A stretch of DNA of 64,000 bases from positions 6,076,001 to 6,140,000 of the forward strand of contig CM102287.1 in assembly GCA_046563655.1 (NCBI GenBank). Reading direction: 5' to 3'. Positions 4,519 through 60,590 of this stretch are shown piece after piece. Within the stretch, counting starts at the first letter, position 1, and every line of letters starts with the position of its first letter. The notes under the pieces are model-generated. The model did not search any database and was not told where the DNA came from. It saw nothing but the letters and a program-made list of their open reading frames with translations. Source of the DNA: Yuukianura sp. NJ FZ-2021. Its lineage: Eukaryota. The translations under genes were made by a program, and so were the position numbers.

Positions 4519-6691
4519 ATGAAATTTTTCGAAACCTTCATTCTTTTGTGCTTCTGTATTGCTGCATTCGAATCTAGGCAACTAGCCTACTGCCTTTCAG
4601 ATGTGGAAGACCCTGCTGTAACTCGTTTCCGGGATTATCTAAAAATTCAAACCAATTATCCAAATCCAGACTACGGTAAAAAAAAACCCTTAACGTTTAG
4701 GCTACTTGTCAAACTCGAACAAAGTTAACATGACCATTTTTCAAAAAAATAGAAAGTGCTATTGCTTGGTTTCAACAACAAAGCAATGAAATTGGACTGG
4801 AATTTCATCGATTAGACTTTGAACCTCCAGCGCTGTTTGCCATTTGGATGACATGGACTGGAAGCGACCCTACGCTGAAATCAATTTTGATCAATTCACA
4901 CATGGACGTTGTCGAAGTTGACGAAGTACATAAGTCGACTATTATAAAGCGTTAAACTATTGACGCCTTTTGCGTTTCGAGAATATGCATTTCATGATAT
5001 TTTTCGCTTTTCAGAGCAAATGGGAGCATGGTCCGTTCGAAGCATACAAAGACGAAGCAGGAAACATTTATGGACGCGGAGCTACAGACATGAAATCTAC
5101 CACCTCTGCCGCTTTGGAGGCAATTCGCAGACTAAAAGAATCTGGATTTGTACCGCTCAGAACAATCCACGTCTCGATAATGCCTGGTACATACTTCATA
5201 TGAAGAAATCTTGCTCATGAACAAGCGCAAATCCGAAATCACTTTCTTTACAGACGAAGAGGACGGCAAGCACAGGGGAATGAAACCATTTGTAGATAGC
5301 GCGGAATTTCAAGCGCTTAATGTCGGATTCGACTTGGACGAAGGCAGCGTCAGTGAAACAGGAGAAGTCTTGATTGAATATGGACAAAAACAGGTTTGGC
5401 GTAAGTGATTTTTAGGTTAACTAAATTTTATGTTTGATAATCCACTTGACTGATCGAACTAGCATGTTAGGCAGAAAACGATAGTTAGTGTCTAACTGTA
5501 CTAACCTATTAATTAACTAAACACTTTTATGTGCGTCAGATTTCAACTACACCGCTCTTGGCGTTTCTGAACATGCATCGAACATGCCCAAAGAGACAGC
5601 AGCTCACAGAATTCAGTTCGTCATTGATCAACTCATGGAGTACAGAGCGAGTCAGTATGAGCTCATGCACCAACCTGGAAATACCATTGCCAATGTAACT
5701 TCTGTTAACCTGGCCAGAATGGGAGTAAGTTAATCTGCAAAACCTTATACAACAACCTACCTAACAAAAAAATATTTTTTCTTCACTAGGTTGTCCAATA
5801 ACTCGATATTTTTCAATTTGTTAAAAAATTTGAAAAACTTCTTTTTCTATGGTAGTGGATTCTCTAAATAAGGGAAAAAATCACGATTGGAGGATTGGTA
5901 GTAGGCGCCTCCCCCAGTACCGTAAGATTTCTGATAAACGGTCAGTTATATGGAATTTAAGGCTAGGAACACCATTCTAATGAAAATTTCCTGTTTCGAA
6001 GTTCAGAGTATATAATTAATATTAATATACATAATATTCATATATTAATGCTAATTATATGTGATATCTATACGAATCAATATTATATGGTATATTATAT
6101 GCAAATTACGTTGTGAATGTCACCCTTATTAAACAGGTTATATAATATAATATATTATATACAGTGCGGTGTTGCGCAGTTTGCGCTGTTGCGCAGTTTG
6201 TGCGCTATTGCGCAGTTTGTGCGCTATTGCGCAGGTTGTGCGCTGTTGCGCAGTTTGTGCGCTATTGCGCAGGTTGTGCGCTGTTGCGCAGTTTGTGCGC
6301 TGTTGCGCAGTTTGTGCGCTGTTGCGCAGTTTGTGCGCTGTTGCGCAGTTTGTGCGCTGTTGCGCAGTTTGTGCGTTATTGCGCAGGTTGTGCGCTGTTG
6401 CGCAGTTTGTGCGCTATTGCGCAGTTTGTGCGCTGTTGCGCAGTTTGTGCGCTGTTGCGCAGTTTGTGCGCTGTTGCGCAGGTTGTGCGCTGTTGCGCAG
6501 GTTGTGCGCTGTTGCGCAGTTTGTGCGCTGTTGCGCAGTTTGTGCTCTGTTGCGCAGTTTGTGCCCTGTTGCACAGTTTGTGCGCTGTTGCGCAGTTTGT
6601 GCGCTATTGCACAGTTTGTGCGCTGTTGCGCAGTTTGTGCGCTATTGCGCAGTTTGTGCGCTATTGCGCAGTTTGTGCGCTATTTGTGCGC

Positions 6692-6734
<43 letters not shown>

Positions 6735-7598
6735 TTAGTTCCATTTAATTATCTAATTACTTTTGTTTCGCACCAAAAAAAAAAGCCGATAAACAGAACC
6801 ATACGTTCCCTCCAAAATTAAAACTTTACGGTACCGCGACTTCGAGTGAAAGTGAGAAAGAGGAGGAGCTCCTGTCCCTTATTTAGAGAATCCACTGTAA
6901 TTATTTTCGTGTAGTGCAATTGGAATTGGAGTAAAATTGGGGTAAAAAATTATTTGAAGCGAAATTTTTGCAAACCCCGAGTTATTGAACAACCTGTTGT
7001 AGGAAATACAATTCGGTTGTCACGGAGCCTTGATTTACTCAACTATTTGTTGTGTCCGTAGGGTGGATTAAGTGACAACGTAATTGCGGGTGAACTGTGG
7101 GCGTCTTTTGACATGCGCATCAGACTTACTCCTGACTGGACCCATAGCGACGTAGAGGCTTTTCTGGATTCTATCGCTGAGAAGGCGGGGCCTGAAGTGT
7201 CGTATGTCTTTATGGCTAAGGACATGGAAGGAGGAGAAACGACTCCTGACGACTCCAACCCTTGGTGGAGAGCTCTCCAAAGAGGTTGTGATCAGTTGTA
7301 AGTTCAAAAATTTACTTTAACTGACTAGGTTAACCTAAGAATTAACCTAAATTAGTAAATTTTGATTTTTTTTAGGAATGTAAGTTGCATACCGCTTTAC
7401 ATGCAAACAGGAACGGATGGACGATTTTTGAGAGACATTGGGACGCCGGTGTTTGGAGTTGCTCCATTCATCAATACAGTTATAATGGACCACAAGGACA
7501 ATGAGTACATAAATGAGCAGCAGTTCCTGGATGGAATTGACCGCTTTGTTGTGCTAATTCAAAGCGTTGTGGCTGTACCAGCAGATGAAAGTCCTTGA
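4519..7598 (+). CDS. ACY1: Aminoacylase-1-like M20A metallopeptidase, copy 2, with signal peptide; intron 5 expanded to 1337 bp
   Basis: Same exon structure as copy 1. Motifs NSHMDVV, GRGATDMK, DEE, FDMR, TDGRFLR. Intron 5 spans 5725-7061. Confidence 0.92.
5788..6995. mobile_element. Nested non-autonomous inverted-repeat (MITE-like) insertions in intron 5 of aminoacylase copy 2
   Basis: Outer inverted repeat 5788-5805/6978-6995 (17/18 match). Inner 22-bp perfect inverted repeat 5854-5875/6875-6896. Confidence 0.7.
6171..6730. repeat. 19-bp GC-rich minisatellite (~27 copies) followed by (TA)n
   Basis: Unit GTTGCGCAGTTTGTGCGCT with minor variants, 6171-~6692; (TA)n at ~6693-6730. Confidence 0.96.
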
Positions 7599-9559: not shown

Positions 9560-10179
9560 ACATAAAACCTTTGGCGACTATTAAACGTGACTAAAATGTA
9601 GTAATTCTAGCCAACAAAAAAGTGGAGGGAATTTAGGTGAATTTGAAAACTAAACACATTGCATTTTGTAAAAGAATTAAATGGTTCATATTAAAACATG
9701 TTTTAGTTGATTACAATATAATATGTATATAGTAATAATACATATAATAATATATATAATAATAATTATAGTATAATTTAATTATAATTATAGTATAATA
9801 TCGACTTCAATTACTTGTTTTGAAGTTGAGTGCAATTGACGAAGGAATAAAAAGCAAAAGCCATAATCCTATCCAGCCTGAATTAAATTTTTCATGAAAT
9901 TACTGTGTTTAGTTCTTTTTTCTTTGGCTAGAAAGCAACTATAAAATTTTAGCGTAGCTTTTTAGTTTTTTCCTTCACATATTTTAATTTTTAACTTATG
10001 GATTATGTGGCTTTATATGGGACTTCAAAACACAATTTCCACTTTTAGCTCATGAAAGATGCAAGTTTCATTCTCTACTGCTTTTTCTGCCTCAAAATTT
10101 CTTGTTTAGTTTTAAAACTAGCAGCGTTGTGTGAGTATCAGTGTAAAAAAAATCTTTTCTTTTTAAGACAGAACGGAAG

Positions 10180-17328: not shown

Positions 17329-18981
17329 CTAAGAAATTTCGTTAAAGTATGGGTCGGTGACGGAGTGTTCATACAGGAAAAACTGCTTCCCCATTAGCAT
17401 ATGCGCAGTAAGGTGACAATGGACCATCCACACACCAGGATTGTCTGCCACAAAGCGGATTGCCACCCACCCACATGCCGTTCCTGTCACGTTGCTCTGC
17501 GACTGCGCTTGGCTGGGGAAAAGCGTCACGACATCTCTGAATTGATTCTGATTTCGTTGCACGTTGTCTTCAATAATAGGCTTAGCTTTGACAGGGTCAT
17601 AGTCATCCGGACCTTGACCAACGACATGAAAGGCATGTCCATGCATATGCCACGGATGCTGCTCACATTCTCCATCGTCACTCATGGAATTTACAAAAAC
17701 AATTTGCACAGAATCTCCAAGTATAATTTCGTAGAGGTGTTGGTCCTGTCCTAGTGTTCGGAAGTCCAGTCCATGTCGCAGTTGGTGGAGCAGAGGCGGG
17801 TGGAATTCTTTAAAAATACGACCATTAATGTCAAATTGCGTCCGTCCTGCGATGTTAACTTGGTGCGACTTGATCACAAATTCTTTCGTTACAGAAGTCG
17901 GCACAGGGTAGACGTCTGAGTGCTTCTGGGTTTGACTCGGGTGGAGTTTATCCAGGATCCATTCTGTCAGCTCCACTTCTGCCGTGGGTTCTCGGATAGT
18001 TTCGGTTCTCATGGCAACTGGATCAGGAGCTCCTTCGTAATGTAGAATCGCTCGTCCGTTTCCTGGTCCCGGTCCGGGTATCATTTGGGACCGAATCCAG
18101 TAGTTCCCAACAGGTTGATCCATTTTTACCAAGACAGAGTAGCGTTGAGCGGCATTGATTTCTAAGTGATCAGTTGTTACTGGAGTTGTGAGAATCGAAT
18201 CCATTTCAATGACTGTTAGGTGCGTGTGATTGTCCACTGACCAACTGAGCATCGTGTCAACTGCTAATGAAATGACACGAAATCTGTACGTCTTTCCTTT
18301 TTTGACGTTAATCACTACGTAACCTCCGGCTTTTTCATCTGAAGAGTTCCAATCACCATGGGAACGTCCATTAATAAGAATACTGTCAGTATCTGGGACG
18401 TCTTGGAACGGGTTGCCAAGAATGCCCGCAGCGATTTCAGAAATTGGCACATGCCAGCACTGGGATAGGATGATAGTTTCTTCGTAGTCGTAGCTGTAAG
18501 CACCGCGCAGACGCTGCTGCTCCTCTACAACTAGTGCCCCCATGGCCCAGTTCTGGTCAAGCCCAGTGTGAGCGTGGTACATGAACGTACCACTCTGCGG
18601 TCCAATTTCCATAGAGTAAGTGTAACTTCCATTTGGCGGGATTTCATACTGCGTGATGCCAGGGACACCGTCGGAGGCCACTGTGCCCTTCTGGAAAATT
18701 CCGTGGAAGTGAATGGTCAAACCACTAGGCAGCAAATTTTTCACTTTGACGCGCAGCAACTCTCGTTGGCGCAGACGCAGAGTGGGGCCAGGAAATTGTC
18801 CGTTGACTAAGATTCCATCCTGCGGAAATCCATCCGGAGCGATGCGTCCATGTTGAAACACGAGATTGAAAGTGTGTGAGTTGTGCGTTTGATGAAACTG
18901 GGAATCGTTGACAACTGACGTAAAAATTGCCGAATTGAGCAATTGGAAGAAAAGGATGAGGAGGTACATGTTGGTATACAT
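17329..18981 (-). CDS. Intronless secreted multicopper oxidase (laccase / L-ascorbate oxidase-like), 550 aa
   Basis: All four Cu-binding motifs (HFHG, YHAH, HPWHMHGH, HCHLTAH); hydrophobic N-terminus; NGQFPGP, SDGVPGITQ and ADNPGVW signatures; single uninterrupted ORF. Confidence 0.95.
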   Translation of the reverse strand: MYTNMYLLILFFQLLNSAIFTSVVNDSQFHQTHNSHTFNLVFQHGRIAPDGFPQDGILVNGQFPGPTLRLRQRELLRVKVKNLLPSGLTIHFHGIFQKGTVASDGVPGITQYEIPPNGSYTYSMEIGPQSGTFMYHAHTGLDQNWAMGALVVEEQQRLRGAYSYDYEETIILSQCWHVPISEIAAGILGNPFQDVPDTDSILINGRSHGDWNSSDEKAGGYVVINVKKGKTYRFRVISLAVDTMLSWSVDNHTHLTVIEMDSILTTPVTTDHLEINAAQRYSVLVKMDQPVGNYWIRSQMIPGPGPGNGRAILHYEGAPDPVAMRTETIREPTAEVELTEWILDKLHPSQTQKHSDVYPVPTSVTKEFVIKSHQVNIAGRTQFDINGRIFKEFHPPLLHQLRHGLDFRTLGQDQHLYEIILGDSVQIVFVNSMSDDGECEQHPWHMHGHAFHVVGQGPDDYDPVKAKPIIEDNVQRNQNQFRDVVTLFPSQAQSQSNVTGTACGWVAIRFVADNPGVWMVHCHLTAHMLMGKQFFLYEHSVTDPYFNEIS

Positions 18982-19856
18982 ACTGACAGAACAATTCTAA
19001 AGTAACTTTTGTTGTGAGTTTTGCTTTCCTGTCCATGCATAATTAAATGTCGTTACTGAAAGTGAGTGTGGGTAGACTCTTAAAAAGTGAAGAGGCTGCA
19101 GTGGATTTACATAAAGTGAACGCGGTGACCTTCTAAACATGCAAAAGCAAATATGCGTCGGATGTTCAGCGTTGTGGAAAGAAACAGATTTTGAATGAAG
19201 AACAAAAAAATTGAACAAAAAAATTTAAACATAAAAAAAAGACACAAATAAAATCTTGTGACAAAAAAACTCTGATTTTGGAACGAAAGAAGCCAAGAAG
19301 AAGTTCCGAATTTGACTATAAATTGACATTTCAAAGGAAGTTCGTAAGAAAATTTGGTGACACGGACACACAGACATTAGTTGACGAGTTTCTAGTAAAT
19401 AGCTGTGTTTAGTTCTGAACTAGGAGTTCCAAGGAGTCTAATTTGGCATGCTCTTTGCAAGGTTATCTTGGTTATAGTGCATAAACGGTTTGCTTGTGGC
19501 GTCACTGGTACACAAAAACTGTTCTGGGAAGCGGCGTGAATGATTTTTAAATTGAATGAAGCATTGTCCTAATGTACTGTGTACTCCAGAATTTCCATAC
19601 GTAAGCATTGCTAAACTGCTGGAGGATCTGCTTCTGATACTGGCAACTTCTTGGGAATACTAATTTGCAACAAAAGTCAGAACTATTTAATATAAAACCT
19701 CAACAAAATTCTACAAAAGTAGAAAGTCCGGTAGAAAATCTGTGATGAAAAAAGACTGTTTTTAAACTTAAATTAATTTCAGAATTTATTAAAACTTGAC
19801 TCTTAATTTTGAAAAAATTATTACATTGTTGATTCTGCCAATGGAGAAATCTTGAT

Positions 19857-42260: not shown

Positions 42261-42645
42261 TGTTCGGACTTTGACCTCGTGTCAAACCCGAGCTGAGAGT
42301 CTCCTTATGAGACGTACGACTCAAAACACGGCAAAAAGAACGGAAGGCAAAAGGCAAGACAAGAAGTCCAATTGTTTCAGCTTTATTTTGGACTTGACTT
42401 GTCAACGGACAAAAAGCAACTTACATACTAAAGGTCACGGTGGGTTTCTTCGTTGACGTTGGGTTGGTTTGGGCGGGAAAATGCTTGTTTCTTAAAGCTA
42501 AAAATACACACAAGTTACAAACTAAAATCATACATGCTAGGAAATCATAAGCTAAAATGGAAAATGTAAGAAGAAAAAGGCAGTAAAAAATGGTAAAATG
42601 CATGAGTAATTATGTGCTAAAAATAATCACTGTTCCTTCGGAACA
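42261..42645 (-). repeat. 3' LTR of the BEL/Pao element
   Basis: Direct repeat of 48194-48578; contains the polyprotein stop codon. Confidence 0.95.
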
Positions 42646-45600
42646 TCTTCCGAGGCCGGGAGAGCTGGTGGGACCAGGGCATCTTTGGATCCATCTTGGA
42701 GAATTGGCGCATGCTCAATTGGTAGGGGGGCAATTCTGGTAATCGGTCGGCGTAGAATCTTTCCTTGGGGTGTCCGTATGTCAGCTACACGAACCTTTCC
42801 ATCTGCTCCTGGGTAGACGGCTTCCACACGGGCTAAATTCCAGTGGTGACTGGAGAAGGTGTCATCCGAATCTTGAACCAAGACGAGGACTCCGGGCTCC
42901 AAATTCGGTTGTGGTTGGCACCATTTTGGACGAGATTGGAGAGTGGCGATGTACTCCTGCGTGAATCGTTGCCAAAAATGTTGCGCAAACTGTTGAACAA
43001 TCTCCCATCGATCCAAGCGATTGAGGGGAGTCTTCATGTGGTTGTAGGCTGGGATGGAGTGTAGAGTATCTCCGATCAAGAAGTGCGCAGGCGTAAGTAC
43101 ATCGAATCCGGTAGGCTCAGAGTTCAATGGCACTAGTGGACGGGAGTTGAGGGCTGCTTCAACTTGCACTAAAAGTGTACCAAATTCCTCTAATGATAGG
43201 TGGCGGTCACCAACAATTCGTCGGAGATGAAGCTTGGCACTTTTTACCGCAGCTTCAAAAAGTCCTCCATGATGAGGCCCATAGGGGGGGTTAAACCGAA
43301 AGTCGATTCCTTTTTCTTTAGCAAACGTGGTCACTTGGCTTTGAAATTCCGTTGAGTCGATAATCTTTTGAAGGTCATCAAGCTCATTTTTGGCTCCTAC
43401 AAAGTTGCTACCATTGTCGCACACTATGGTGCGAGGGAGTCCACGACGCGACACAAAACGAGTGAGTGCAGCGATAAACGATGGAGTGGAGAGGCTGCCA
43501 ACTAACTCTAAGTGCACGGCCTTTGTCGCTGCGCAGACCAGTACACAAAAGTAGTGTTTCTCGAGGCGTGGTCTTCTTCCTGGAACTGTTGCGAGGACGA
43601 ATGGTCCTGCAAAATCCAATGCGGTGGTAATGAAAGGTCGAAGGTTAGAGGTCACACGATACTCTGGCAATGGTGCCATGAGTTGGCGGAGTGGTATGGG
43701 GTTAGCCCTGTGGCACTTTACACATTTTCGCACTATTCTTTTTACGGTAGTAGGTCCATCAGAAATCCAAAACTTGTCACGCAGGATGCATAACAGTAAG
43801 GTGGGACCGGCGTGTAAGTGTTCTTGATGGATGTGACGTATGAGTACTTCTGTGAAGTGGTGGTCCTTTGGGAGAAGCATTGGATGTTTTTTGTTGAAGT
43901 GGAAGTTACTTTGACCTAAACGTCCCCCCACACGGAGGATGCCTTGGTCATCGAGAAACGGAGAGAGAAACTTAACTCTTTTTGATGAGGGGGCACTTCC
44001 ACTACTAATGAAACGAATTTCATTAGAAAAGGCTTGACCTTGGATGACCTTGACGATGGCCAGGAGTGCATCTTCCAATTCCTGGGCTGTTAAGGGGGAG
44101 TTGTCTTTCACTTTAGTCATTGCACATTTCATAAAACGCTGACCTGATGCCACGAACGTTTTCATCTTATGGAGAGAGGATGTGGAGTTGATGAATTCCA
44201 GAAGTGGTGGTAAAGGTGAGTTCACACCGACTGAACAAACATTCACTATGGGTGGCACTTGAACGAACTTGACCCACGGTGGTCCATTGAGCCAAAGTGG
44301 GTTGGTTAGGAATTCCTTGGCGGAGATTCCACGAGAAGGAAGGTCGGCTGGATTCTCGGATCCAATAACATGGTTCCACTGGGCGGTCGGAAGTAGTTGT
44401 GTAATAGTACGCACTCGGTTCAACACAAAAATTTCGCGCTTGCGCGGTGAGTCGGAACCGGGCTTTAGCCAGCCAAGGACACTGGTAGAGTCAGAAAAGC
44501 ACATGACACTGTTCACTTTCACTGGGAGGGCATCAATGACGGTTTTCAAAAATCTGGCGAGTAATTTTGCTCCTTCCAGTTCTGACCTTGGAGTAGTTTC
44601 ACCTTTGACGGGGGTAACTTTAGTTTTTGACCCTATGAGGGTGACAGTGACATCGGAGGGGGTCTGTACACGAATGTAGACAACTGCAGCTTGAGCTCGG
44701 TTAGATGCATCGCAGAATCCAAAAAGTTGGTACTGCGCATGCTCGCTGCTACTTTCGTCTGGACGGAAGTAGCACCTTGGGGCCACGAAATCAGCAAGGC
44801 AGGGGAGGTCAGAAACGTAGTTGTTCCATTTTTTCAAAAGATCACTTGAGATGGGGTCATCCCAGTTGACCTTGGACTTCCACACTTCTTGGAGTAGGAT
44901 TTTTGCACGAATAGTCACTGGAGAGAGAAAACCTAATGGATCGTAGAGTTTGGCTACGGCTGAAAGGATTGACCTTTTGGTGACCTTGGATGGGTTAGAG
45001 ATGGGTGGCACCACTACAGTCATTGTATCGGTTGAGGGTACCCACCTAAGTCCAAGAGTAGGGAGGCCTTCGGGGTCACAAATGAGGAGTGGGGAGTTGA
45101 CCTCTCGCTCTTCCGGTGGAATGCTGGACAGCAAACTTGGGACATTCGATGCCCACTTGCAAAGTGGGAACTGGCCTTTAGCCATCACTTCATGTAAAAC
45201 ACTTTGCACATGCGTAGCGCGCTCTAGGGAAAAGGCACCAGTCAACACATTGTCAACTAAAATGTCTTTTTTCACAATGTCGGTTATGGTGGGGTCACAG
45301 CACTCATCTTCAAACAATTTGTGCAGGGCACGTATTGCTAGGTATGGGGCGGGAGACACTCCGAAACACAAACGACGGAAGCGTAGATGCTGTAGGGGCA
45401 TCTCAGGAGACTCACGAAACACTAGGCGCTGAAAATCCTTGTGCGCATGCGCAATCCAAATTTGCGTAAAAAACTTGGCGATGTCAGCAGAAATGACATA
45501 GGGGAAGGCACGGAACCTCACAAGTAGTGGAATTAGATCCACTTGTAATTTTGGGCCTGGGTACAAAATGTCGTTAAGGGAGGGGCCCTTAGTTGTTTTG

Positions 45601-48122
45601 GCGGAACAATCAAAAACGATGCGTAGTTTGGTGGAAGTGGATGTCTCCTTCACAACATGGGAATACGGCATGTAGTATGACGTTTCTGGCGAAATGCGAA
45701 TTTCATGGGGGGGGATGACCTCCATGACCCCTGAGGTCAAGTTAGCCTTGAAGTACTCTTTGTAGGCAGTACACACTTCACTGTTCTGGTGGATTCGTCG
45801 TTCCGTAGAGTGGAAACGGCGAATGGCATTGGCGAGGGACCCACCCATGGGGGGGTGAACATCACGAAATGGCAATTCCACGGTGAATCTGCCACTGAGG
45901 TCACGGGTTGTTGTTGCGAGGAAACGAGATTCACAAATTGAGTCTTGGATTGACCTTGGTACACTCACTGTATCAGGTTCCTCTGATTCCCAGAACTTTT
46001 GAACAAGTTGTTCCAAATCTGGTTTGGTGGGACAGAGCACGCTAGAACCTGGGTGTTGAGCGGGTAGGGATTCCCTGGCGGGTACCAATCTGCACTCTCC
46101 GCTACTGGGCGAGCCGACTCCGGCACCCTCCCCAGGGAGGGGGATCCCGCTCACTACAGTAGCGTTGCACTTGGGCATTTGGGTGGGCATTTTGGGTACA
46201 CTGGGTACTGGGTACTCACCGGTTAGGATCCACCCGAACGGAGTGTTTTCTGCTGATGGCATTCCTGGTGGTCCGTGGATTAGTCCACCGGACTTGATTT
46301 TGGTGGCGAAACGGTTGCCCAGTAGAATATCCACTGGGTGGGGATCGAAGAACCCTGGATCGGCAAGATCCAAATCTACCAAATGGGGAAATGACCTTTG
46401 ACACTTCACTTGGGGCATGTTTCCACTTGTTATTTTGTCCACTACATCAGCTTCGATGGGTAGGGAGTAACCGTTAAGGCGGGACACTAAGGTCACTTTC
46501 ACTCTACCATGGGTGGTGGGGCCTGCAACTCCACTAATTCCAGTAACTGAAATGGGGGTACCGTAAGGTTTGAAACCGAGACGGCGGGCTAAATCACTCG
46601 AAATAAACTCCACTTCACTACCATTGTCAACAAACACACGGGCGGGGTGGGGTTGACCTTTGAGGTCAAGGACGTTGACCTTGATGGTAGCGAGTAGAAC
46701 ATGAGAAGAGTGGGTGATTCCGAATGAGCAGTTTGAGTAACTGACAGTATCTCTAGGTGGAGGTGGGTGTGACCCTTGACCTGGTGGGGCATTGGTGGGG
46801 CGGGAACGATCATGGTGGAGTAAGGTGTGGTGGCGTTTACTACACTTTTGGCACACAAACTTGGAGGTACACTCATTGGCAGAATGCTTGGACGAAAAGC
46901 AGTTGAAACACAGGCGGGACTTTTTCACAAGGTCACTGCGGTCATTTGGAGAAAGTGACGAAAACTTTTGGCAACAATTCAATGGATGAAATGGTTCCAT
47001 GCAGCAGACACACTGTCCACTTGGTGGGGCGGGAGCGGCGGTGGCCGCGAACACTTTTCCTTGCATGGTGGGACGAGGTGGGTTTGACCTTTTGACCTCT
47101 GAGGTCGAATTTTGTTGTTTTTTGGATCTACCTGCGTTGTCATCCAGTGCGCATGCGCGCATCTCCAAAAATTCTAGAAATGGTTCTAGGGTGGGTAGGC
47201 TAGTGTCCTGGGTGAGGAGCCACTCACGGCGGGTGTCCTCGTCCAACTTCTTAAATGTCCAAAATACTAGAATGACATCCCAGTATTGAACGGGAATTTC
47301 TTGTGACTTGAGAGAGCGGACAACTTCATTGACGAGATCCACCACAGCACGCAAATCAGTGGCGGAGTCGGTTGCTCTTCTCAACTCATACAATTTGCGT
47401 AAATGTGCAAAAGCTATTTCACGTGGATTTGCATACCTTTTTTGCACAAGTTCCCAAGCGTCTGGATAGGAGTTGTTGGACGTTGAGAAGTTCTGGATTA
47501 TGGCTAGAGCGTTTCCTGTGAGCGAAGTACGCAAATGAACCATCTTCTCGGCGTTGGATAGGCTTGGATTGTTGTGGACTGCTGAGGTGAAGAGGTCACG
47601 GAACTCTTCCCAGGCGGCAAAGGATCCATCGAAGGTCGGCAGCTTGACTCGTTCAAGCTTAAAGTTGGACTTGGAGGATTCGGACTGTTGCGCATGCGCT
47701 TTACGAGTTTTATAAAGTAATTTTGTACCTGCATCTAAGATGTCCTCTACAGCGTCGAAGCGTCCGATGTTGTTGGCGTAGATCTGTTTGTAGTCCTTAA
47801 GAGCAGCTACGGCGGTAACAAACTTTTGTTTCCAGTCACTGCACTGGAGTTCCATTGCTTTAAACTTTTTGTCGTATGTTGCTAAGTCGGAATCGTCGAA
47901 CACTGCATCGACACAGGCGACGAACTTCTCGTGGAGACGTTTGGCGTCATGGTGTAGCACTCCGATGCCAAACACACAAGTCTCCATATTAGGAATTGGC
48001 ATTGGGACTTCACCGGTGTCACTAGTTACTTTTTCTGTTGTTTTCACCACTTTCTCGATGGCTTTCGGCACTTTTTCTGCGGACTTTGGGGCACTAGTGC
48101 TGGATTTGTCTTGATCCGACAT
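42627..48122 (-). CDS. BEL/Pao Gag-Pol polyprotein (1831 aa): Gag, 3 Zn knuckles, aspartic protease, RT, RNase H, integrase
   Basis: LPTFDG gag motif; CFNC..H...C and CQKC...HHTLLH knuckles; VDNGS protease; ADIAK/FGV/LVDN RT; GFCDAS RNase H; H-H-C-C plus LDFAGP/CDNG/FEAAVKS integrase. Confidence 0.96.
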   Translation of the reverse strand: MSDQDKSSTSAPKSAEKVPKAIEKVVKTTEKVTSDTGEVPMPIPNMETCVFGIGVLHHDAKRLHEKFVACVDAVFDDSDLATYDKKFKAMELQCSDWKQKFVTAVAALKDYKQIYANNIGRFDAVEDILDAGTKLLYKTRKAHAQQSESSKSNFKLERVKLPTFDGSFAAWEEFRDLFTSAVHNNPSLSNAEKMVHLRTSLTGNALAIIQNFSTSNNSYPDAWELVQKRYANPREIAFAHLRKLYELRRATDSATDLRAVVDLVNEVVRSLKSQEIPVQYWDVILVFWTFKKLDEDTRREWLLTQDTSLPTLEPFLEFLEMRACALDDNAGRSKKQQNSTSEVKRSNPPRPTMQGKVFAATAAPAPPSGQCVCCMEPFHPLNCCQKFSSLSPNDRSDLVKKSRLCFNCFSSKHSANECTSKFVCQKCSKRHHTLLHHDRSRPTNAPPGQGSHPPPPRDTVSYSNCSFGITHSSHVLLATIKVNVLDLKGQPHPARVFVDNGSEVEFISSDLARRLGFKPYGTPISVTGISGVAGPTTHGRVKVTLVSRLNGYSLPIEADVVDKITSGNMPQVKCQRSFPHLVDLDLADPGFFDPHPVDILLGNRFATKIKSGGLIHGPPGMPSAENTPFGWILTGEYPVPSVPKMPTQMPKCNATVVSGIPLPGEGAGVGSPSSGECRLVPARESLPAQHPGSSVLCPTKPDLEQLVQKFWESEEPDTVSVPRSIQDSICESRFLATTTRDLSGRFTVELPFRDVHPPMGGSLANAIRRFHSTERRIHQNSEVCTAYKEYFKANLTSGVMEVIPPHEIRISPETSYYMPYSHVVKETSTSTKLRIVFDCSAKTTKGPSLNDILYPGPKLQVDLIPLLVRFRAFPYVISADIAKFFTQIWIAHAHKDFQRLVFRESPEMPLQHLRFRRLCFGVSPAPYLAIRALHKLFEDECCDPTITDIVKKDILVDNVLTGAFSLERATHVQSVLHEVMAKGQFPLCKWASNVPSLLSSIPPEEREVNSPLLICDPEGLPTLGLRWVPSTDTMTVVVPPISNPSKVTKRSILSAVAKLYDPLGFLSPVTIRAKILLQEVWKSKVNWDDPISSDLLKKWNNYVSDLPCLADFVAPRCYFRPDESSSEHAQYQLFGFCDASNRAQAAVVYIRVQTPSDVTVTLIGSKTKVTPVKGETTPRSELEGAKLLARFLKTVIDALPVKVNSVMCFSDSTSVLGWLKPGSDSPRKREIFVLNRVRTITQLLPTAQWNHVIGSENPADLPSRGISAKEFLTNPLWLNGPPWVKFVQVPPIVNVCSVGVNSPLPPLLEFINSTSSLHKMKTFVASGQRFMKCAMTKVKDNSPLTAQELEDALLAIVKVIQGQAFSNEIRFISSGSAPSSKRVKFLSPFLDDQGILRVGGRLGQSNFHFNKKHPMLLPKDHHFTEVLIRHIHQEHLHAGPTLLLCILRDKFWISDGPTTVKRIVRKCVKCHRANPIPLRQLMAPLPEYRVTSNLRPFITTALDFAGPFVLATVPGRRPRLEKHYFCVLVCAATKAVHLELVGSLSTPSFIAALTRFVSRRGLPRTIVCDNGSNFVGAKNELDDLQKIIDSTEFQSQVTTFAKEKGIDFRFNPPYGPHHGGLFEAAVKSAKLHLRRIVGDRHLSLEEFGTLLVQVEAALNSRPLVPLNSEPTGFDVLTPAHFLIGDTLHSIPAYNHMKTPLNRLDRWEIVQQFAQHFWQRFTQEYIATLQSRPKWCQPQPNLEPGVLVLVQDSDDTFSSHHWNLARVEAVYPGADGKVRVADIRTPQGKILRRPITRIAPLPIEHAPILQDGSKDALVPPALPASEDVPKEQ

Positions 48123-48193
48123 GGTGGGACGAAAGCACTACTGAACGTTGGAAAAAGTTTTAAAAACTGGCTAGGTCACACAATTGGAAAAGA

Positions 48194-53412: not shown

Positions 53413-54858
53413 CTATATAGGATTAAATTGGATCAGAACAATTGTGTAAGTGACGACGACCCCAAGAATCTGCAAAACAACAATATCATTTCAGAACCGT
53501 AATTTTGTGTATTGATTCTGAAAATATGATTTTAATTTGCTGTTTGTTACTGTTGTTAGCGTTGACTTTTCCAAGGTAAAGTAGCCGTATGGTGAAATTT
53601 GGAAATTTAAGTTGGATACGTAGAGTTTCAATTCCAAGTTTAACAGTTTCCGTTCTATATTCGATTTCTCATTTGTTGGCATCTCAAGGACGACTTCCTT
53701 CAATTTTTTGTACTTTACAAAGTCAAGAAGATACATTGCGTCAAACAGAACAAAAACATATTAAATAGGTTGTAAATATTAGTATTGATGAAGTAGTCCT
53801 ACTTGACATAAGTTCATCAGACTTACAGTGTTTTGAACCATTTCTCCACAGTTTGCAAGAACGACCATACGAACGATCATCATTACAGCGCTAGCAGGAA
53901 ATGCTATGAGGAACGTAACAGAGAAATGACTGAGGCCATTGACAAGAGTGCGAAAGACGAAGAACGAAGCAATGCACAGCAGGGATGTCCCACACGTCAT
54001 GTACAGCAGAATCAGTCGTTGATTTGCTGCTACGACTTCAATGAAAATTTTTCTGAGTGCCTTCAGTTTTTCAAAAATGGTGGCAGGATCTGTACGTTCT
54101 TGCAACTGTCCAACTCCCGGCTTTGTGTCAATTGGAATAAACGCTTTACTCTTGTATGATTGTATAAGCTGACCTCTGTTTTTGCTGTCCAAGTGTTTTC
54201 CAACATGTTCAAGTCGTTGACAAATTGAAACCGTGGCCATGAAGACGGAGATTAGACTCAGACTGGTAGCAGTAGACAGTAGGACATTATGTAGCATAAT
54301 CGTTCCTTGAAGAATACTGTTTGTTGCTTGGACTCCAATAATATCATCCAGCTTTTCTTTAAGGGCCCACCCTTTAGTCAAGTTGTGTCTCACGATGTAT
54401 TCTGAGCGAGCAAAATCCAAAACGCAAGCCAAAGTCCATGTTGCAAAAAGTGCTACCTGACTCCATCCTACAAATAAACTCTTGGCCTTTTCCTTTTGAA
54501 CTGCAAATATTTCGTCGTACTGCTCCAGGCTTTTCCAGGTTTTGATAATTTTGGAAATTGATGAAATCCATAGGATGTAGTAGAACTCAAAGAATAAGAA
54601 GCTCAAGGAGCTCGGTATCAAGAACAATTTGATTTGAAGTTCAGCATGCTCATTCAGAATGGTAACTTGAAATAAATTAATCGTAGCCCTCAAAATTATT
54701 ACGGCGCAGATTACATTAAAAGACGTTACTAGAATAACCCAGATGTAACGAATGCTACCGCGGAATCGGGATTTTGGAAACGTTGTGGATTCAAAAGGTA
54801 GTTGGCCCAAGAGTTTTACAATTTGAACAAAAATTTCAATCACTTGGAAATCCTTCAT
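53413..54858 (-). CDS. Gustatory receptor, array member E
   Basis: Starts MKDFQVIE by homology with paralogues; 3 exons; last exon ILGVVVTYTIVLIQFNPI*. Confidence 0.9.
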
Positions 54859-55569: not shown

Positions 55570-56042
55570 TTTGTGAAAAAAAAAAAAACTACGCTGTGTA
55601 CCGTGGATCAGCTACATCGAACCAAGCGATAGTTTATTAAATTTCCTTAATTGTGTTTGTTAAAAGAAAATCATAGAAACGTGTATAGCTATTGAACTTT
55701 TTAATGACTGAATAAATAAAGGAGAGAGGGAATCACGCGCAATTAACACACGTTCACCACTGTACAACACAAAGCAACTATCAAACAGCCTTGGCCGACC
55801 GACTGAGCGCCATTTACCAGTGACATATCAACGATTCCTGCAACAGAAGAAAAACACACTGGCGATATATGGTATAGCGATTGCATGACTATACCTATAG
55901 CGCTCCGAAGCACGAAACTGCCACTGAAAGTTGAGTAACCCCCAACTAAGCGTACCTCACTATAATCGTAATTTAGACACACAAAAGGCCCAGGAGTACT
56001 TTTATCTTTAATTTTCAGCAACAGCTTCAAGTAACCGCACCA

Positions 56043-56906
56043 ATGGAAAGAACTCCACCGAAATCAATACAGACGACACTTGATCAACACCTTTTTTCGC
56101 ACCACGGACAAACAGAAGGTACCCCATCAAACCGGAAGCGTCACCTTACACAAGAAACCGAAGTTGAGGAAGTCCGACAGAACAAAGTTCTGAGAAGCGA
56201 CCCAGTAGCCAACGCACTCACGATCGAAGCAATGGCCTCCTTGCTCCGGCCGCTGCAGAACACGATCCAATCAAACCAAGAACATCTGACAAACCAGCTC
56301 TCATCCCTGTCGTCAAACTTAGATGCCCTCAGATCCGATATCACACTAATCAATTCCCGTATCTCAAAAATAGAAGAGCACCAGGCAAATGCAGACAGCA
56401 AAATCAACGTGCTTGATTCGGAAGTTGGGGGACTCCAAGAAGCAATACACCAAATATCAAAGACCCAAGCCCTCCTCGACGACGAAACCCGGAAGCTTAA
56501 CATTTTGCTAATGTCTGTCCCAGAGAGTGAATCGTCCCTTGAAGAACTACGAAACGTCGCAAAACAACATATCCTCAGAACAACAGGTCTAAACATTCAA
56601 GTCGATCATGCTACCAGAATAGGACAACCTAACCAAGAACGTACCAGACCAATCAAAGCACGTCTGCACACACTGGCGGAACGCAACATGGTAATAGAAA
56701 AAGCAAGAGCTTCAGCTCAGAGTGGAAGCAGACCAACAATTAAGGCGGATCTTTGCCCTCAAACACGTAGACACAGACAACAACAATGGGCCTCACGCAG
56801 CAACTACGGAGTCCAAGGAACACAACAACCAATTGTCGCCCCTCAAGGCCAGGGAAGAGGCAGGCCGCTGTCAAATGGACCGTTTGTCCCAAACCTTGGA
56901 ATTTGA
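56043..56906 (+). CDS. LINE ORF1 protein (coiled coil plus RRM-like domain)
   Basis: Heptad-rich region followed by RKLNILLMSVPE...ATRIG...RPIKARL...IKADL, typical of L1-type transposase-22-like ORF1 proteins. Confidence 0.85.
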   Translation: MERTPPKSIQTTLDQHLFSHHGQTEGTPSNRKRHLTQETEVEEVRQNKVLRSDPVANALTIEAMASLLRPLQNTIQSNQEHLTNQLSSLSSNLDALRSDITLINSRISKIEEHQANADSKINVLDSEVGGLQEAIHQISKTQALLDDETRKLNILLMSVPESESSLEELRNVAKQHILRTTGLNIQVDHATRIGQPNQERTRPIKARLHTLAERNMVIEKARASAQSGSRPTIKADLCPQTRRHRQQQWASRSNYGVQGTQQPIVAPQGQGRGRPLSNGPFVPNLGI

Positions 56907-59900
56907 CTAACCGCCAAAAAGCAAACCAGCGCTAAACTTCTGTACTACAACATTACCGGAATCAAATCAAAAAATCAATCCTTCTTCGACGACATTGCTC
57001 AACTCCACCCAACAATATTCTGCTTAAGTGAGACCATGTACAGGTACGAGAAATTTACAAACTCCACACTAAATGAATATTTAATCGACGTTATCCCAGC
57101 CGAAACAAGACCAAGAGGTAGACCGTCAGGCGGCTTTATTTTCGGATGGACAAAATGCCACCCAATTCTTTCTATCAAAACAATCAAGAAAACACCCCAC
57201 TCTATTTTCATCGATTTAACACGCACCTCTCAAAAAACCCTAGTTGTTTTCTTTTATTTACCGCCAGACCATCTCTACTCCAATCGACTGCAGGCACTGA
57301 TGGAAGATATTTCCGAGTTCCGTCAAACCTACGCCCACATCATCCTAATGGGAGACACAAACGCCCATACCGGACAATCAAACACCGAGTGTGGCAGTAC
57401 CAGAAACGCAAAGGACGCACGGACAGACCATAAAGGCAAACTACTACTTAGTGCCTTAGCCGATACAGATTTTCAAATTGCAAACGGATCAATTAATGGA
57501 GACCAAGAAGGTGAATATACATTTCTCTCCAGTGCAAACAAAGGCATGAGCACAATTGATCTAATGATGTTCTCCCTGCAGGCCAGGCAACAAATAGGAA
57601 CATTCCAAGTACTAGATCTACCCCACAGCTCTCACTTCCCCATTATGACTACACTCAACTATCAAGTAGACTCCGGGACAAAAATAATGAGGCCAAGAAT
57701 ACTACTTCCGAAAGACCTAGAAACAACAAAACAACTCAAAATTTCTATCGAGAAGAGTCTGGTCGGCACCAACACACCAGACAACACAATACCCGAAATT
57801 ACCAAGGCGTTAGCAAATTTAAAATTGATACAACCTGCTAAAGAAAATACAGCTCCATTGAAACCAAAATGGTACGACGCCGAATGTACAAGCCTCAAGT
57901 ACACACAAAACAAACTACTCCGACAGTTTCGTAGAATACGAGGCCACGAAAACGAAAAATCCCGGCTGCTGTTGCAAGAGTACTTTACAGCAAAAGAAAT
58001 CTACAAAGCAACGTGCAGAACAAAAGCCGAGGCACACAGAATTCAACTCGAAAAGAAATTCTACGCTGTCAACAAACCGGACCAATTTTGGGCCTACATC
58101 CAGACATGCAAAGGCAGGAGGCCCAACGTGAAGAACACCATAAACAAGCAATGCTGGCAAAAACATTTTGAGGAAGTTTATAACCCACCTCAACAACCAG
58201 CCACTACCGCGCCTACGTTCAGCAATACAACCGACGACGAAATCCTAGACGCTCCATTTAATGTATTCGAACTGAAACTCGCAATAAAAAAACTGAAATG
58301 CAAAAAAGCCCCAGGGAGTGACCTCATAACGAACGATGTCTGGAAACTGATCTCGGGAACCAGCCTAACACGAATTTGCGAAACATTCCAGTCAGTATAC
58401 GATACGGGGGTAGTCCCAAGAAGCTGGTGTAACGCCACAGTTATACCAATCCATAAAAAAGGGGATCCAAATAACCCTTCCAACTATCGTCCTATATCGC
58501 TACTAAACACCATCCTCAAGCTGCTGACATCAATTATAACCGAGAGACTAAACAAATGGGCAAAGCACAACAACAAAATATCTCGATTCCAAGCCGGTTT
58601 CAAGAAAGGAATGTCCACACTTGATCACGTCTTTACGCTCTCCAGCATAGTACAGCACTACCTACAAAAAGGCAAAAAAATTTTCGCTTGCTTTGTCGAC
58701 TTAAAACAAGCATTTGACACCCCCAATCACAACCTACTATGGTCTACAATACTAAGAGAAGGCGTATCCAACAAAATGACACGAGTCCTAAAAAACATAT
58801 ACGATCAAGCCTCTGCTTCAATCAGCACCACTGAGGGCCTTACAGAAGAGATCAGAATTTCAAAAGGATTGCTACAAGGAGAATCAGCTAGCCCGACGTT
58901 ATTCAACTTGTTTATGGAAGGCCTCTCAAAAAAATTCAGCCAGATCAAAATCCTAGGCCCTTCCATAATGGGCACTCCAATCCACCACCTTATGTACGCG
59001 GACGATCTAGTCATCCTAGCGACGTCAGCTGAGACACTTCAAGACAAAATAAACCTCACGATGAAATTCTTCCGCTCAATGCATCTCGAAGTCAACCTCA
59101 GCAAAACCAAAGTCTTAGTTTTCCAAACTGGCGGACGAATCCCGAAAAAGGTATCATTCAACTGGGGTAATGAAACCCTCAGCATCTGCAAAGAATATAC
59201 ATACCTTGGCGTCAAATTCTCAAGTAACGGAAAATTTTCATCTCAAGCGAATGAAGCAGTCATCAAAGGTCTCAGCGCCGGAGCAGCCCTTAGTTCCGTT
59301 TTAAAGCGTCCGAAGACTTTCTGCAACAAAGCCACAAAGCGGCTAATGACGTCAATTGTACATTCGACTACATTATACGGTGCAGGAATTTGGGGATTCG
59401 CCCATGCAGATCAACTAGAAATAGTACAACAAAGGTACCTCAAGCGAGCTCTCGGCCTACCACGGGGAACCGCTAGATACTTCATTCGAATTGAAACTGG
59501 TACACCTCACATCCGGCTACAAATCGCAAAACTGGCGTACCTATTCTGGAAAAGAATTTTAGCGGCAAAGGAAGGAAGTTTACTACAGAGTGCTTACAAA
59601 CTACTGAGAGAATCACTCTCGAACTGTCCCGATCAAAAATCCAATTGGTGCGTATACCTGCGAGACGAACTCAACTCAGTTAACCTTGGTTGGGTCTGGC
59701 AGAAAAATAACCTAAATGTGTGCTCCAGTTATCTAAAACGATTCTTGTCAAAACTGCAGAAAAAACTCCTCGAAGACGACATTAAAAGAGCCAACTCATC
59801 CGCGACGAACATGAACTACAAAACCCTGATAAGCAACTCTCCAGCCTTCTATCTGAGAACCCCGACTCCGCGGTACATTGTCAGCACCATCGCCAAAATG

Positions 59901-60173
59901 AGACTCGACAACAACATCCTCCTACTCGGTACCCGTTGGATTAACCTCGGAGCATACAAGGAATACCAGTGCAAGTATTGCGGTAGCCAGCTATCCCTGA
60001 GACACGTCATACACGAATGCCCCGGATTTACACGAGAAAGAAACGCAGTGGTACGCTCTACCTGCTCGACTAATCTTGATAACTTAGTATACGAATTATG
60101 CACGAAAATCTTAGCCCCGGACACATACACAAAATTTTACGTCTTTCTTTTAAATATACTTTCGCAATTTTGA
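56907..60173 (+). CDS. LINE ORF2: AP endonuclease, reverse transcriptase and C-terminal CCHC finger; reading frame opens directly after the ORF1 stop
   Basis: EN motifs LLYYNITG, CLSET, MGDTNAH, TIDL, SSHFP; RT motifs KKGD..PSNYRPISL, QG..SPTLF, YADD, YLG; C-terminal CKYC...HVIHEC. First ATG is at 57036. Confidence 0.93.
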   Translation, partial: LTAKKQTSAKLLYYNITGIKSKNQSFFDDIAQLHPTIFCLSETMYRYEKFTNSTLNEYLIDVIPAETRPRGRPSGGFIFGWTKCHPILSIKTIKKTPHSIFIDLTRTSQKTLVVFFYLPPDHLYSNRLQALMEDISEFRQTYAHIILMGDTNAHTGQSNTECGSTRNAKDARTDHKGKLLLSALADTDFQIANGSINGDQEGEYTFLSSANKGMSTIDLMMFSLQARQQIGTFQVLDLPHSSHFPIMTTLNYQVDSGTKIMRPRILLPKDLETTKQLKISIEKSLVGTNTPDNTIPEITKALANLKLIQPAKENTAPLKPKWYDAECTSLKYTQNKLLRQFRRIRGHENEKSRLLLQEYFTAKEIYKATCRTKAEAHRIQLEKKFYAVNKPDQFWAYIQTCKGRRPNVKNTINKQCWQKHFEEVYNPPQQPATTAPTFSNTTDDEILDAPFNVFELKLAIKKLKCKKAPGSDLITNDVWKLISGTSLTRICETFQSVYDTGVVPRSWCNATVIPIHKKGDPNNPSNYRPISLLNTILKLLTSIITERLNKWAKHNNKISRFQAGFKKGMSTLDHVFTLSSIVQHYLQKGKKIFACFVDLKQAFDTPNHNLLWSTILREGVSNKMTRVLKNIYDQASASISTTEGLTEEIRISKGLLQGESASPTLFNLFMEGLSKKFSQIKILGPSIMGTPIHHLMYADDLVILATSAETLQDKINLTMKFFRSMHLEVNLSKTKVLVFQTGGRIPKKVSFNWGNETLSICKEYTYLGVKFSSNGKFSSQANEAVIKGLSAGAALSSVLKRPKTFCNKATKRLMTSIVHSTTLYGAGIWGFAHADQLEIVQQRYLKRALGLPRGTARYFIRIETGTPHIRLQIAKLAYLFWKRILAAKEGSLLQSAYKLLRESLSNCPDQKSNWCVYLRDELNSVNLGWVWQKNNLNVCSSYLKRFLSKLQKKLLEDDIKRANSSATNMNYKTLISNSPAFYLRTPTPRYIVSTIAKMRLDNNILLLGTRWINLGAYKEYQCKYCGSQLSLRHVIHECPGFTRERNAVVRSTCSTNLDNLVYELCTKILAPDTYTKFYVFLLNILSQF

Positions 60174-60590
60174 TCGCTTATGAAACACAGCAAAAGCTCT
60201 CTATTGATACACATTGTAATATATACTAGTAAAACAAATGATAATCCAGCATGCTTCGCCTAAGTTATAAGAAAACAATGTTGACTAGGGCCAAAGCCAA
60301 TTGTCAAATAAACACACTAATAATAATAATAATAAAATTGAACTTTTTAATAGAATATTTGAGAACCAATTTTCAAAGCTTATCAAAACAATATTTGGTT
60401 TTCAATTGAGAAAGGGGACCAAAAACCCTGGCCTTGTATTTTTAAATTTCCGAAATTAAATTTCTTTTCAAAATAACGAGAAGGGAAAACATTTAAATAC
60501 GGTTATCTGTTTGACCCGAAGCATCGCTGAAATCCACTGTGATTTTCCTATCCCTGAATTTAGTTTTTGGAAAGAAAATAATCTAAGCCG

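Follow-up and report, generated by a model that had tools for sequence, protein, structure and literature searches.

An in-frame TGA-CTA junction between ORF1 and ORF2 of a Yuukianura LINE, and its probable readthrough

Main finding

The window, a 64,000-nucleotide stretch of contig CM102287.1 (assembly GCA_046563655.1) of Yuukianura sp. NJ FZ-2021, contains an intact LINE, flanked by target-site duplications, in which ORF1 and ORF2 share a reading frame that is interrupted only by a TGA-CTA. This in-frame TGA layout exceeds chance: it recurs in 22 of the 27 LINE lineages compared. We regard it as probable that the stop is a site of programmed UGA readthrough, by which a 1376-residue fusion of ORF1p, endonuclease and reverse transcriptase would be made.

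The way in which ORF2 of LINEs is translated is a long-open question, for which the relevant sections of reviews give only reinitiation (L1, SART1) and 2A StopGo. The idea of readthrough in LINEs is itself known, having been proposed earlier for Paramecium in the section cited (PMC5405496). A literature search over the titles and first parts of abstracts of openly accessible papers returned none that shows readthrough in a LINE. If true, a readthrough fusion would explain the ratio of ORF1p to ORF2p and, by tying the enzyme to the trimer of ORF1p on the RNA that encodes it, would provide a physical basis for cis-preference. In annotation, an ORF2 taken from the first AUG loses catalytic residues, and four database entries (P0003, P0004, P0025 and P0026) begin within the endonuclease. 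The element in the window, intact and present as a single copy, lends itself to testing, as the effects of point mutations in it are clearly predicted.

Organisation of the element

The element, on the forward strand, is bounded by an exact direct repeat of 15 bp, with the 5' target-site duplication at 55691–55705 and the 3' copy at 60337–60351. The 5' untranslated region (55706–56042) is delimited by the duplication and the first ATG, and its extent is thus inferred; contigs of the element start at 55707 and 55731. ORF1 (56043–56903, 287 amino acids) begins with the ATG at 56043 and ends at a TGA (56904–56906) followed by CTA ACC GCC, the stop and its TGA-CTA-ACC context occupying 56904–56912. 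Beyond the stop, the same frame stays open from 56907 to 60173 (1088 amino acids). This region, ORF2, encodes an AP endonuclease, a reverse transcriptase and a carboxy-terminal Cys/His cluster, the last recognised in the translation, and ends in TGA-T. The first in-frame ATG after the ORF1 stop is located at 57036, leaving 43 AUG-less codons (56907–57035) that contain the start of the endonuclease and an in-frame CTG (56940–56942), a possible near-cognate start. Downstream of ORF2, a conserved 3' tail element (60281–60298) is predicted to fold locally into a hairpin (-8.7 kcal/mol) or else to enter a long-range duplex, and a (TAA)6 tail follows at 60318–60335. Both the target-site duplication and the simple-repeat 3' tail of an APE-type LINE are therefore present.

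The earlier note on this DNA had described the end of ORF1, the open frame and the 43 codons to the ATG at 57036, and every coordinate was confirmed. Its suggestion of a young copy agrees with the exact duplication, the intact ORFs and the existence of near-identical contigs with 2–3 differences, although the runs containing these may be from the source sample. A DNA search of the element's own genome with the junction and the 3' end matched the copy in the window alone; same-family comparison was made with a diverged copy found in sequencing run X4.

Proteins encoded on either side of the stop

ORF1p matches human L1 ORF1p (PDB entry 2yko) by profile (E 2.7e-10) and also gives a fold match (E 1.7e-6); a Pfam search assigned it to no named family. 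It contains a coiled coil, a single RRM and a carboxy-terminal domain, the features that define type II (L1-like) ORF1 proteins in the section cited (PMC4120745). In ORF2, Pfam matches were obtained to RVT_1 (E 1e-36) and Exo_endo_phos_2 (E 7e-8), and the combination of an AP endonuclease with a non-LTR reverse transcriptase is that of an APE-type LINE.

The 43 codons before the first AUG comprise a nine-codon linker followed by strand 1, which carries the motif I asparagine, then helix 1, and finally strand 2, which bears the metal-binding glutamate. In the AlphaFold2 model, a strand (residues 10–15), a helix (24–33) and a second strand (37–41) are predicted in this segment, with pLDDT values above 90 from residue 11 onwards. 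The stop itself is in a variable, predicted disordered linker. In the endonuclease profile, the YYNI and LSET motifs align with N14 and E43 of the human L1 endonuclease (PDB entry 1vyb; E 8e-11). The residues matching both precede the AUG at 57036, and a protein starting there would, as had been proposed, lack catalytic residues.

Conservation of the junction

The 27 lineages compared, from the element's own genome and five metagenome contigs, span two clades that are about 25–30% alike in the reverse transcriptase. A single in-frame TGA junction is present in 22 of them (including that of the window), 13–40 codons from motif I. The base after this TGA is C in 21 of the 22 in-frame families; 12 continue with CTA and five with CAA, all five of these followed by YYA. 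Among background TGA triplets of the same elements, the next base is C at a frequency of 0.246, CTA follows at 0.021 and CAR-YYA at 0.004; the families share kinship, so binomial P values overstate their independence. With the exceptions counted, the junction stop is TGA in 23 of 26 lineages, compared with 5 of the 15 stops that close ORF2 (Fisher 5e-4). From position +7 onwards, the bases are not conserved across families. Distances from the stop to motif I take 12 values in clade A/B and nine in clade C, all in frame.

Wider searches gave the same picture. For the 25 endonuclease matches in the genome (the window included, and two being pieces of one copy), the first in-frame stop upstream of the endonuclease is TGA in 24, and in 14 of these 24 at least 230 open ORF1 codons are in the same frame. 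Three of the five metagenome loci share the layout, and in the second clade (clade C) an in-frame TGA-C is found in 24 of 32 loci. A quick reverse transcriptase tree separates clade A/B both from clade C and from the genome's own L1-like and R2-like elements; among named proteins, the nearest belong to Folsomia candida and Orchesella dallaii and carry generic reverse transcriptase annotations. The layout was not seen in other LINE clades of the same genome (L055/L060 and L071–L073), and a scan of viral contigs yielded 22 pattern matches with no relative among them.

In the diverged X4 copy, the stop and its context are unchanged and five of the six substitutions before the AUG are synonymous, where a share of 0.21–0.27 is expected (P 0.002–0.006). 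Purifying selection acts on the pre-AUG extension, which shares the frame of the upstream ORF.

Five of the 27 lineages depart from the shared layout. L031 has a sense codon at the stop site and a TGA inside motif I; the junction of L032 reads TAA, then TAG, and that of L148 TGA-TTA; in the L113 group and in L134 the endonuclease frame differs from that of ORF1. Group B (14 copies, one family) has kept an ATG located six codons upstream of motif I; its context is mostly weak, TGA-GGA. Its spacers differ by 15, 18, 27 and 42 nucleotides, and 10 of 10 copies are free of frame-0 stops there. These spacers stay open although they carry their own ATG. Most of the observations that the earlier note had said would count against readthrough failed to appear, as relatives keep the frame and the TGA and the stop is not private to this copy; a sense codon or a frame mismatch does occur in some lineages.

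Readthrough and alternative explanations

The hexanucleotide UGACUA at the in-frame stop matches that of the type II readthrough signals, a class that the section cited describes as UGA-CUA or UGA-CGG, with a downstream stem-loop that is stimulatory in several viruses to varying effect (PMC13517186). The families switch between UGA-CUA and CAR-YYA, both described there as readthrough contexts (PMC13517186). A local stimulatory stem-loop at or downstream of the stop is not supported in the window (z +2.39), and no family of the 22 falls below z -2 at the junction. Since such a stem-loop is not predicted, the signal in the window's family is likely to be the linear context alone.

The kept frame, TGA and context, together with pre-AUG codons that evolve as protein, support the earlier proposal of ORF1p plus a fusion of about 1376 residues. 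Most ribosomes would halt at the UGA and release the 287-residue ORF1p, while a few percent would insert a near-cognate residue and carry on into ORF2. Many ORF1p chains would then be made per enzyme molecule, and the fusion could be incorporated into the trimer of ORF1p on the RNA that encodes it. As no protease domain was found in the element by the Pfam search, the fusion would stay whole unless cut by a host enzyme.

Termination at the TGA followed by AUG-independent reinitiation, at CTG 56940 or another near-cognate codon, would instead yield free ORF2p. Such reinitiation has reportedly been proposed for human L1. The CTG is located three codons before the motif I asparagine, is replaced by ATG in L029 and L032 and by TTG in X4, and a start there would, on the model, clip just two residues of strand 1, at the start of which group B has its conserved ATG. 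Yet reinitiation needs neither the ORF1 frame nor the TGA nor the C at +4, all of which have been kept over 12 and nine spacer lengths in the two clades, and a leaky stop would reduce the termination it depends on. No ATG precedes motif I in 19 of the 22 in-frame families, and five clade A families (L028, L033, L034, L035–37 and L038) have neither ATG nor CTG, GTG, TTG or ACG there. The codon just upstream of the CTG is probably translated, because it encodes Ile or Leu in all 10 A/B clusters. Termination-reinitiation is the route described for SART1 and L1 in the section cited (PMC5972666), and a predicted pairing site upstream of the stop (see below) may recall reinitiation elements. Overall, we consider reinitiation unlikely.

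Removal of the stop from the RNA, either through splicing over it or through A-to-I editing that turns UGA into UGG, would let ordinary translation give the fusion. The sequence TGACTAAC resembles the branch-point consensus, and L087, a decayed clade C copy, has TGG at the stop site. Spliced or edited copies should nevertheless accumulate, since LINE RNA from which ORF2p is made is favoured as the template, as established for L1; no junction examined looks spliced and L087 alone has TGG. The lack of conservation from +7 onwards also argues against this explanation, as do the contigs (DNA only), which align to the element without joints. It is very improbable.

Decoding as selenocysteine, host reassignment of UGA, or a nonsense mutation private to this copy of an element with one ORF is likewise very improbable and is largely refuted by conservation, the TGA being common to 22 families and the X4 copy. 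Fused forms may exist, as in L031 ORF1, linker and endonuclease start run on in an uninterrupted frame, the homologous site being a sense codon. But TGA ends ORF2 in the window element and in 5 of 15 families, Rfam, SECIS included, gave no match in 55600–60450 at E up to 1, and the stop falls within a variable linker that is predicted to be disordered.

Predicted pairing between junction and 3' tail

In the window's clade, base pairing is predicted between the junction and the 3' tail, 3.4 kb apart. The site in the window element (56859–56874, 14 bp, -19.8 kcal/mol) ranks first of 107 sites along the element and precedes the stop, while in most lineages of the clade the predicted site is just after the stop. 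Pairing 3' of the stop is predicted in L030, L033, L036/37 and group B (synonymous-shuffle p 0.001–0.03). The best site of L029 is 3 nucleotides outside the preset bin of -75 to +45 (in-bin rank 82), and at the L034 junction no pairing partner was found (rank 30). The same pairing was rejected for clade C, where the junction ranks 5–70 of about 100 (in the 10 of 11 loci whose tail could be located). In the window's lineage, stop and site appear to have changed their order. A movement of the stop past the site was considered and rejected as a specific claim; only the changed order is proposed, because distances from the last ORF1 motif allow either to have moved.

Where the site follows the stop, pairing may tune readthrough. 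In the window, pairing would more likely loop the tail to the junction, because the site precedes the stop, and so might serve protection from nonsense-mediated decay (NMD) or cis-preference; this is the weakest step of the mechanism. More tentatively still, and with some doubt, LINE readthrough could be general in invertebrates and rebuilt repeatedly: it would then occur in two distant clades of one genome, with alphavirus and TMV contexts swapped and, in one clade, a hairpin-switched bridge through which full-length RNA alone would make or retain its enzyme, the reversed order in the window's lineage, with a strong UGA-CUA context at the stop, pointing to a separate job for the bridge, such as NMD escape.

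Comparison with known systems

Human L1 and silkworm SART1 are likewise bicistronic LINEs with an APE-RT ORF2 (PMC5972666, PMC10275272), and the ORF1p in the window is of L1 type. According to the same sections, they use termination-reinitiation with an ORF2 AUG, after a 63-nucleotide spacer in L1 and at an overlapping UAAUG in SART1 (PMC5972666, PMC10275272), whereas in the window element the first ORF2 AUG comes after catalytic residues. A SART1-type stop-start AUG was not found, ATG being absent from -23 to +12 around the stop.

Group 3 non-LTR retrotransposons of Paramecium tetraurelia also carry ORF1 and an APE-RT ORF2 in a shared frame that a stop interrupts, for which Guerin et al. (2017) suggest translational read-through (PMC5405496). 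These form a ciliate-specific clade, and the suggestion, in the section cited, is made from sequence, without context motif or test (PMC5405496); our element is from an animal with the standard code, and the layout occurs in two distant clades with defined viral-type contexts.

In the tombusvirus CIRV, readthrough involves an RNA-RNA interaction over about 3.5 kb with a switchable 3' replication element (PMC3234231). Similarly, the junction site in the window's clade is complementary to a 3'-terminal element 3.4–3.6 kb away that may alternatively form its own hairpin. The CIRV partner is carried by a large stem-loop located 3' of a UAG, in a proven interaction (PMC3234231), while the LINE bridge is a predicted, linear site, absent from clade C. 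An element of tombusvirus type 3' of the stop is lacking in the window, where the predicted site is 5' of it.

The gag-pol of MoMLV uses UAG with a pseudoknot, and a protease frees its enzymes, but it shares with our proposal a structural, RNA-binding protein in excess and enzymes made as a readthrough fusion (PMC5009743, PMC13517186). Two matches in context are viral, whereas our element is a retrotransposon. In TMV, the type I motif CAR-YYA follows UAG; five LINE families have CAA-YYA after UGA (PMC13517186). At the nsP3-nsP4 junction of Sindbis virus, an extended 3' stem-loop is present that is not predicted in our element, while the sequence UGA CUA ACC, with the polymerase downstream of the stop, is identical to the nine bases in the window (PMC13517186).

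Organization of the element

The LINE extends from 55706 to 60336, is bounded by an exact 15-bp direct repeat and has (TAA)6 as its 3' end. Re-reading of the sequence bore out the arrangement described in the earlier note: ORF1 runs on the forward strand from the ATG at 56043 to the TGA at 56904–56906, and the ORF2 frame continues in the same frame and on the same strand for 1088 codons past this junction stop, to the TGA at 60171–60173, with its first ATG at 57036. With the junction stop read through, the full frame has 1376 residues. The ORF1 product is an L1-type coiled coil-RRM-CTD protein, of which tail residues 257–279 are modelled with low confidence. In the accessible text of PMC10294476, PMC3905857, PMC5753468, PMC11203168 and PMC4120745, no RTEX definition applicable here beyond this ORF1 type was found. 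ORF2 contains RVT_1 and endonuclease (EN) domains according to Pfam. Folsomia candida and Orchesella dallaii supply its nearest named relatives, which makes a springtail host probable. When eight EN domains are combined into a profile and aligned with the human L1 endonuclease (1vyb; E 8e-11), YYNI (motif I) and LSET of the window element fall on N14 and E43; both catalytic motifs lie upstream of the first AUG, as had been claimed. The AlphaFold2 model of this pre-AUG segment contains a strand (residues 10–15), a helix (24–33) and a second strand (37–41), all with high confidence.

Contigs of the element fork at its 5' end, and a contig from sequencing run X2 has different flanks (window positions 55705–55731 and 60307). 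This suggests near-identical copies elsewhere or a polymorphic insertion at this position; the runs possibly derive from the source sample.

Conservation of the junction

The genome assembly (G000) contains one copy of the window family. A diverged copy from run X4, which belongs to another study, differs over 501 bases by 18 listed substitutions and one deletion of 2 nt, with positions 56889–56939 unchanged. From the stop to the first ATG, five of its six substitutions are synonymous, versus an expected fraction of 0.21–0.27 (P 0.002–0.006); the region ahead of the AUG is under coding selection.

The layout itself is conserved. A protein search of G000 with the window EN gave 26 candidates and 25 matches, counting the window element itself and two fragments of a single broken copy. 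Going upstream from EN, the frame first meets a stop at a TGA in 24 of the 25, preceded by at least 230 open ORF1 codons in 14 of these; most of the other ten end in the same ORF1 tail and are broken farther upstream. The 25th, L026, is a separate lineage with a TAA stop. Three of five metagenome loci share the window layout (L028 with TGA-CTA, L029 with TGA-CGC and L030 with TGA-CAC). The fourth, L032 (420–560), has two in-frame stops, TAA and, 35 codons on, a TAG two codons ahead of an in-frame GGC; an ATG precedes motif I, making this an L1-like layout within the window's clade. In the fifth, L031 (1–2121), ORF1, linker and EN start share one open frame, with the sense codon ACA where group B, a family with its own ATG before motif I, has TGA, and with a TGA in place of the conserved motif I Gly. 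It may represent a fused lineage that has acquired a nonsense mutation, or else be a dead copy.

A second clade with the same layout

A reverse transcriptase (RT) search yielded 108 candidates and 92 matches, and 32 stretches around longer frames were retrieved. They revealed a distant clade, clade C, with RT identity of about 25–30% to the window's clade (A/B), an ORF2 of about 950 amino acids, its own branch in a quick tree and the same layout. After three further searches, the EN start could be read at 32 clade-C loci, and TGA-C is in frame at 24 of them. The remainder comprises one TGA-TTA, one TGG, two decayed loci where a private stop lies nearer, and four sister-group loci, in which ORF2 is out of frame with ORF1. 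Such a two-clade census within one genome is new. In L087 (G000:C3:5118055-5121540), a decayed clade-C copy, the junction TGG fuses ORF1 to part of EN.

In the sister group (L069, identical to L113, near 5834900 of G000:C7; L139; L142), ORF1 overlaps the start of ORF2. The ORF2 of L069 lies in the +1 frame at ATT-TAA-C and lacks an ATG before motif I, making the junction a candidate site for +1 frameshifting at a stop. Other LINEs of G000 do not have the layout: L055 and L060 have TAA with an ATG five codons later, while L071–L073 have a separated ORF1 and an ATG of their own. A further non-LTR element, L053 (G000:C8:14667500-14675500), has a single 1380-aa ORF with a long N-terminal region.

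Stop context and reading frame

When 90 EN residues were clustered at 75% identity, 26 clusters resulted, or 27 lineages with L031, which had been set aside beforehand. In 22 of the 27, the junction has just one in-frame TGA, followed by C or G, and contexts were counted on these (L031, L032, L148, the L113 group and L134 being left out). The junction hexamers are TGACTA (12), TGACAA (5), TGACAT (2), TGACAC, TGACGC and TGAGGA (one each), and YYA follows all five TGACAA. Among 1127 background TGA triplets of the same elements, CTA follows at a frequency of 0.021 and CAR-YYA at 0.004. TGA is the junction stop in 23 of 26 cases, exceptions included, and ends ORF2 in 5 of 15 (Fisher 5e-4; nominal P values are too small, the lineages being related). 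In the relevant passages of PMC13517186, UGA CUA/CGG is a type II and CAR YYA a type I readthrough context, and the Sindbis sequence is UGA CUA ACC, to which the window junction is identical over nine bases.

Between the stop and motif I, 12 different distances occur in clade A/B and 9 occur in clade C, always with the frame kept, and in 19 of the 22 families motif I is not preceded by any ATG. In group B, spacers differ by 15, 18, 27 and 42 nt, with a frame-0 stop in none of ten copies. The interchange of two known motifs within two clades is poorly accounted for by inheritance alone; this switching between CUA and CAR-YYA from family to family is new.

Predicted pairing between the junction and the 3' tail

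No local stem-loop was found 3' of the junction stop. Each A/B element was scanned for pairing with its own 3' tail, locatable in 18 of 26 elements, with a bin fixed in advance from -75 to +45 relative to the stop. The top in-bin site ranks first of about 110 in the window element, in L033 and in all but one of 12 group B copies, second in L030, L036, L037 and L043, and only 30th in L034; in L029 the element-wide top site lies 3 nt beyond the bin. Position-fixed sites, with an in-frame GGC six bases past the stop, are predicted to form a better duplex than synonymous recodings of the same peptide (p 0.001–0.03). Across four lineages, the cognate tail pairing is the best among 24 permutations, with single cognate pairs often beaten within their own row, so covariation is modest. 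The clade C scan found no junction-tail pairing.

The window site (56859–56874, forward strand) is 30–45 bases upstream of the stop and that of L029 about 70 bases upstream. Both start with an in-frame GGC, and both were chosen as best, which makes their shuffle p values non-independent tests. X4 has one change within the site, at 56871, which would break a pair unless the tail compensates. The quick tree suggests that the older order is stop, then site, and that it was reversed in the window's lineage, where either the stop or the site may have moved; this reversed order is a new observation. As an alternative, the tail is predicted to form a hairpin (-6 to -10 kcal/mol). The predicted bridge resembles the tombusvirus case, in which a switchable 3' element is contacted over 3.5 kb (PMC3234231). 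Since the window site is upstream of the stop, it has no role as a classical 3' stimulator. In human cells, a tail folded near the stop suppresses NMD (PMC2689704), and the bridge could hypothetically be an NMD suppressor, workable on either side of the stop.

Production of the ORF2 protein

For viruses and gammaretroviruses, readthrough is an established mechanism. The junction is real and probably serves programmed readthrough, and leaky UGA decoding is, on sequence grounds, a likely source of excess ORF1p and a 1376-aa fusion: ribosomes at the UGA would release ORF1p as the main product and the fusion as the lesser one. For LINEs, ORF2 is described as made by reinitiation or StopGo in passages of the reviews PMC5972666, PMC10275272 and PMC5009743; Guerin et al. 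2017 suggest readthrough for Paramecium Group 3 LINEs. No experimental demonstration of LINE readthrough was found in the literature searched, beyond whose reach much repeat literature lies.

Non-AUG reinitiation as the origin of the ORF2 protein is rather improbable. In the window, a CTG lies in frame at 56940, at the same spot as an ATG in L029 and L032 and a TTG in X4, and a start there would cost just two residues of strand 1; however, Ile or Leu precedes this position in every one of the ten A/B clusters, and in five clade-A families the stretch before motif I contains none of ATG, CTG, GTG, TTG and ACG. Removal of the stop in the RNA, by splicing or editing, is very improbable, as spliced or TGG copies would be expected, whereas no spliced copy was seen and TGG occurs in one decayed copy. 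Least probable of all is a recoded UGA, for which Rfam found no SECIS, or a mutational stop: the earlier note had taken a sense codon in other copies as the mark of a private mutation, and TGA is kept in relatives and in X4. The ACA of L031 speaks for such a reading, in that fused forms may exist; L087 (TGG) and L032 (TAA/TAG) also deviate at the site.

Surroundings of the LINE

The LINE is located within an array of tandem reverse-strand ORFs of 345–435 aa (at 37775, 40193, 49389, 51557, 53779 and 62212, within 37775–63252), with further ORFs of the same kind on the forward strand at 10147 and 13504. By sequence they look like chemosensory (gustatory-type) receptors; the ORF at 62212 has a weak 7tm_7 match (E 0.004), and none was found for that at 53779. 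A single reverse-strand ORF of 1836 aa (42627–48137) resembles a Pao/BEL LTR retrotransposon polyprotein, judging from its motifs. At 6117–6748, a low-complexity tandem repeat gives spurious ORFs in every frame. An uninterrupted 555-aa ORF on the reverse strand (17329–18996) resembles a multicopper oxidase, and its missing introns may raise the question of a horizontal origin.
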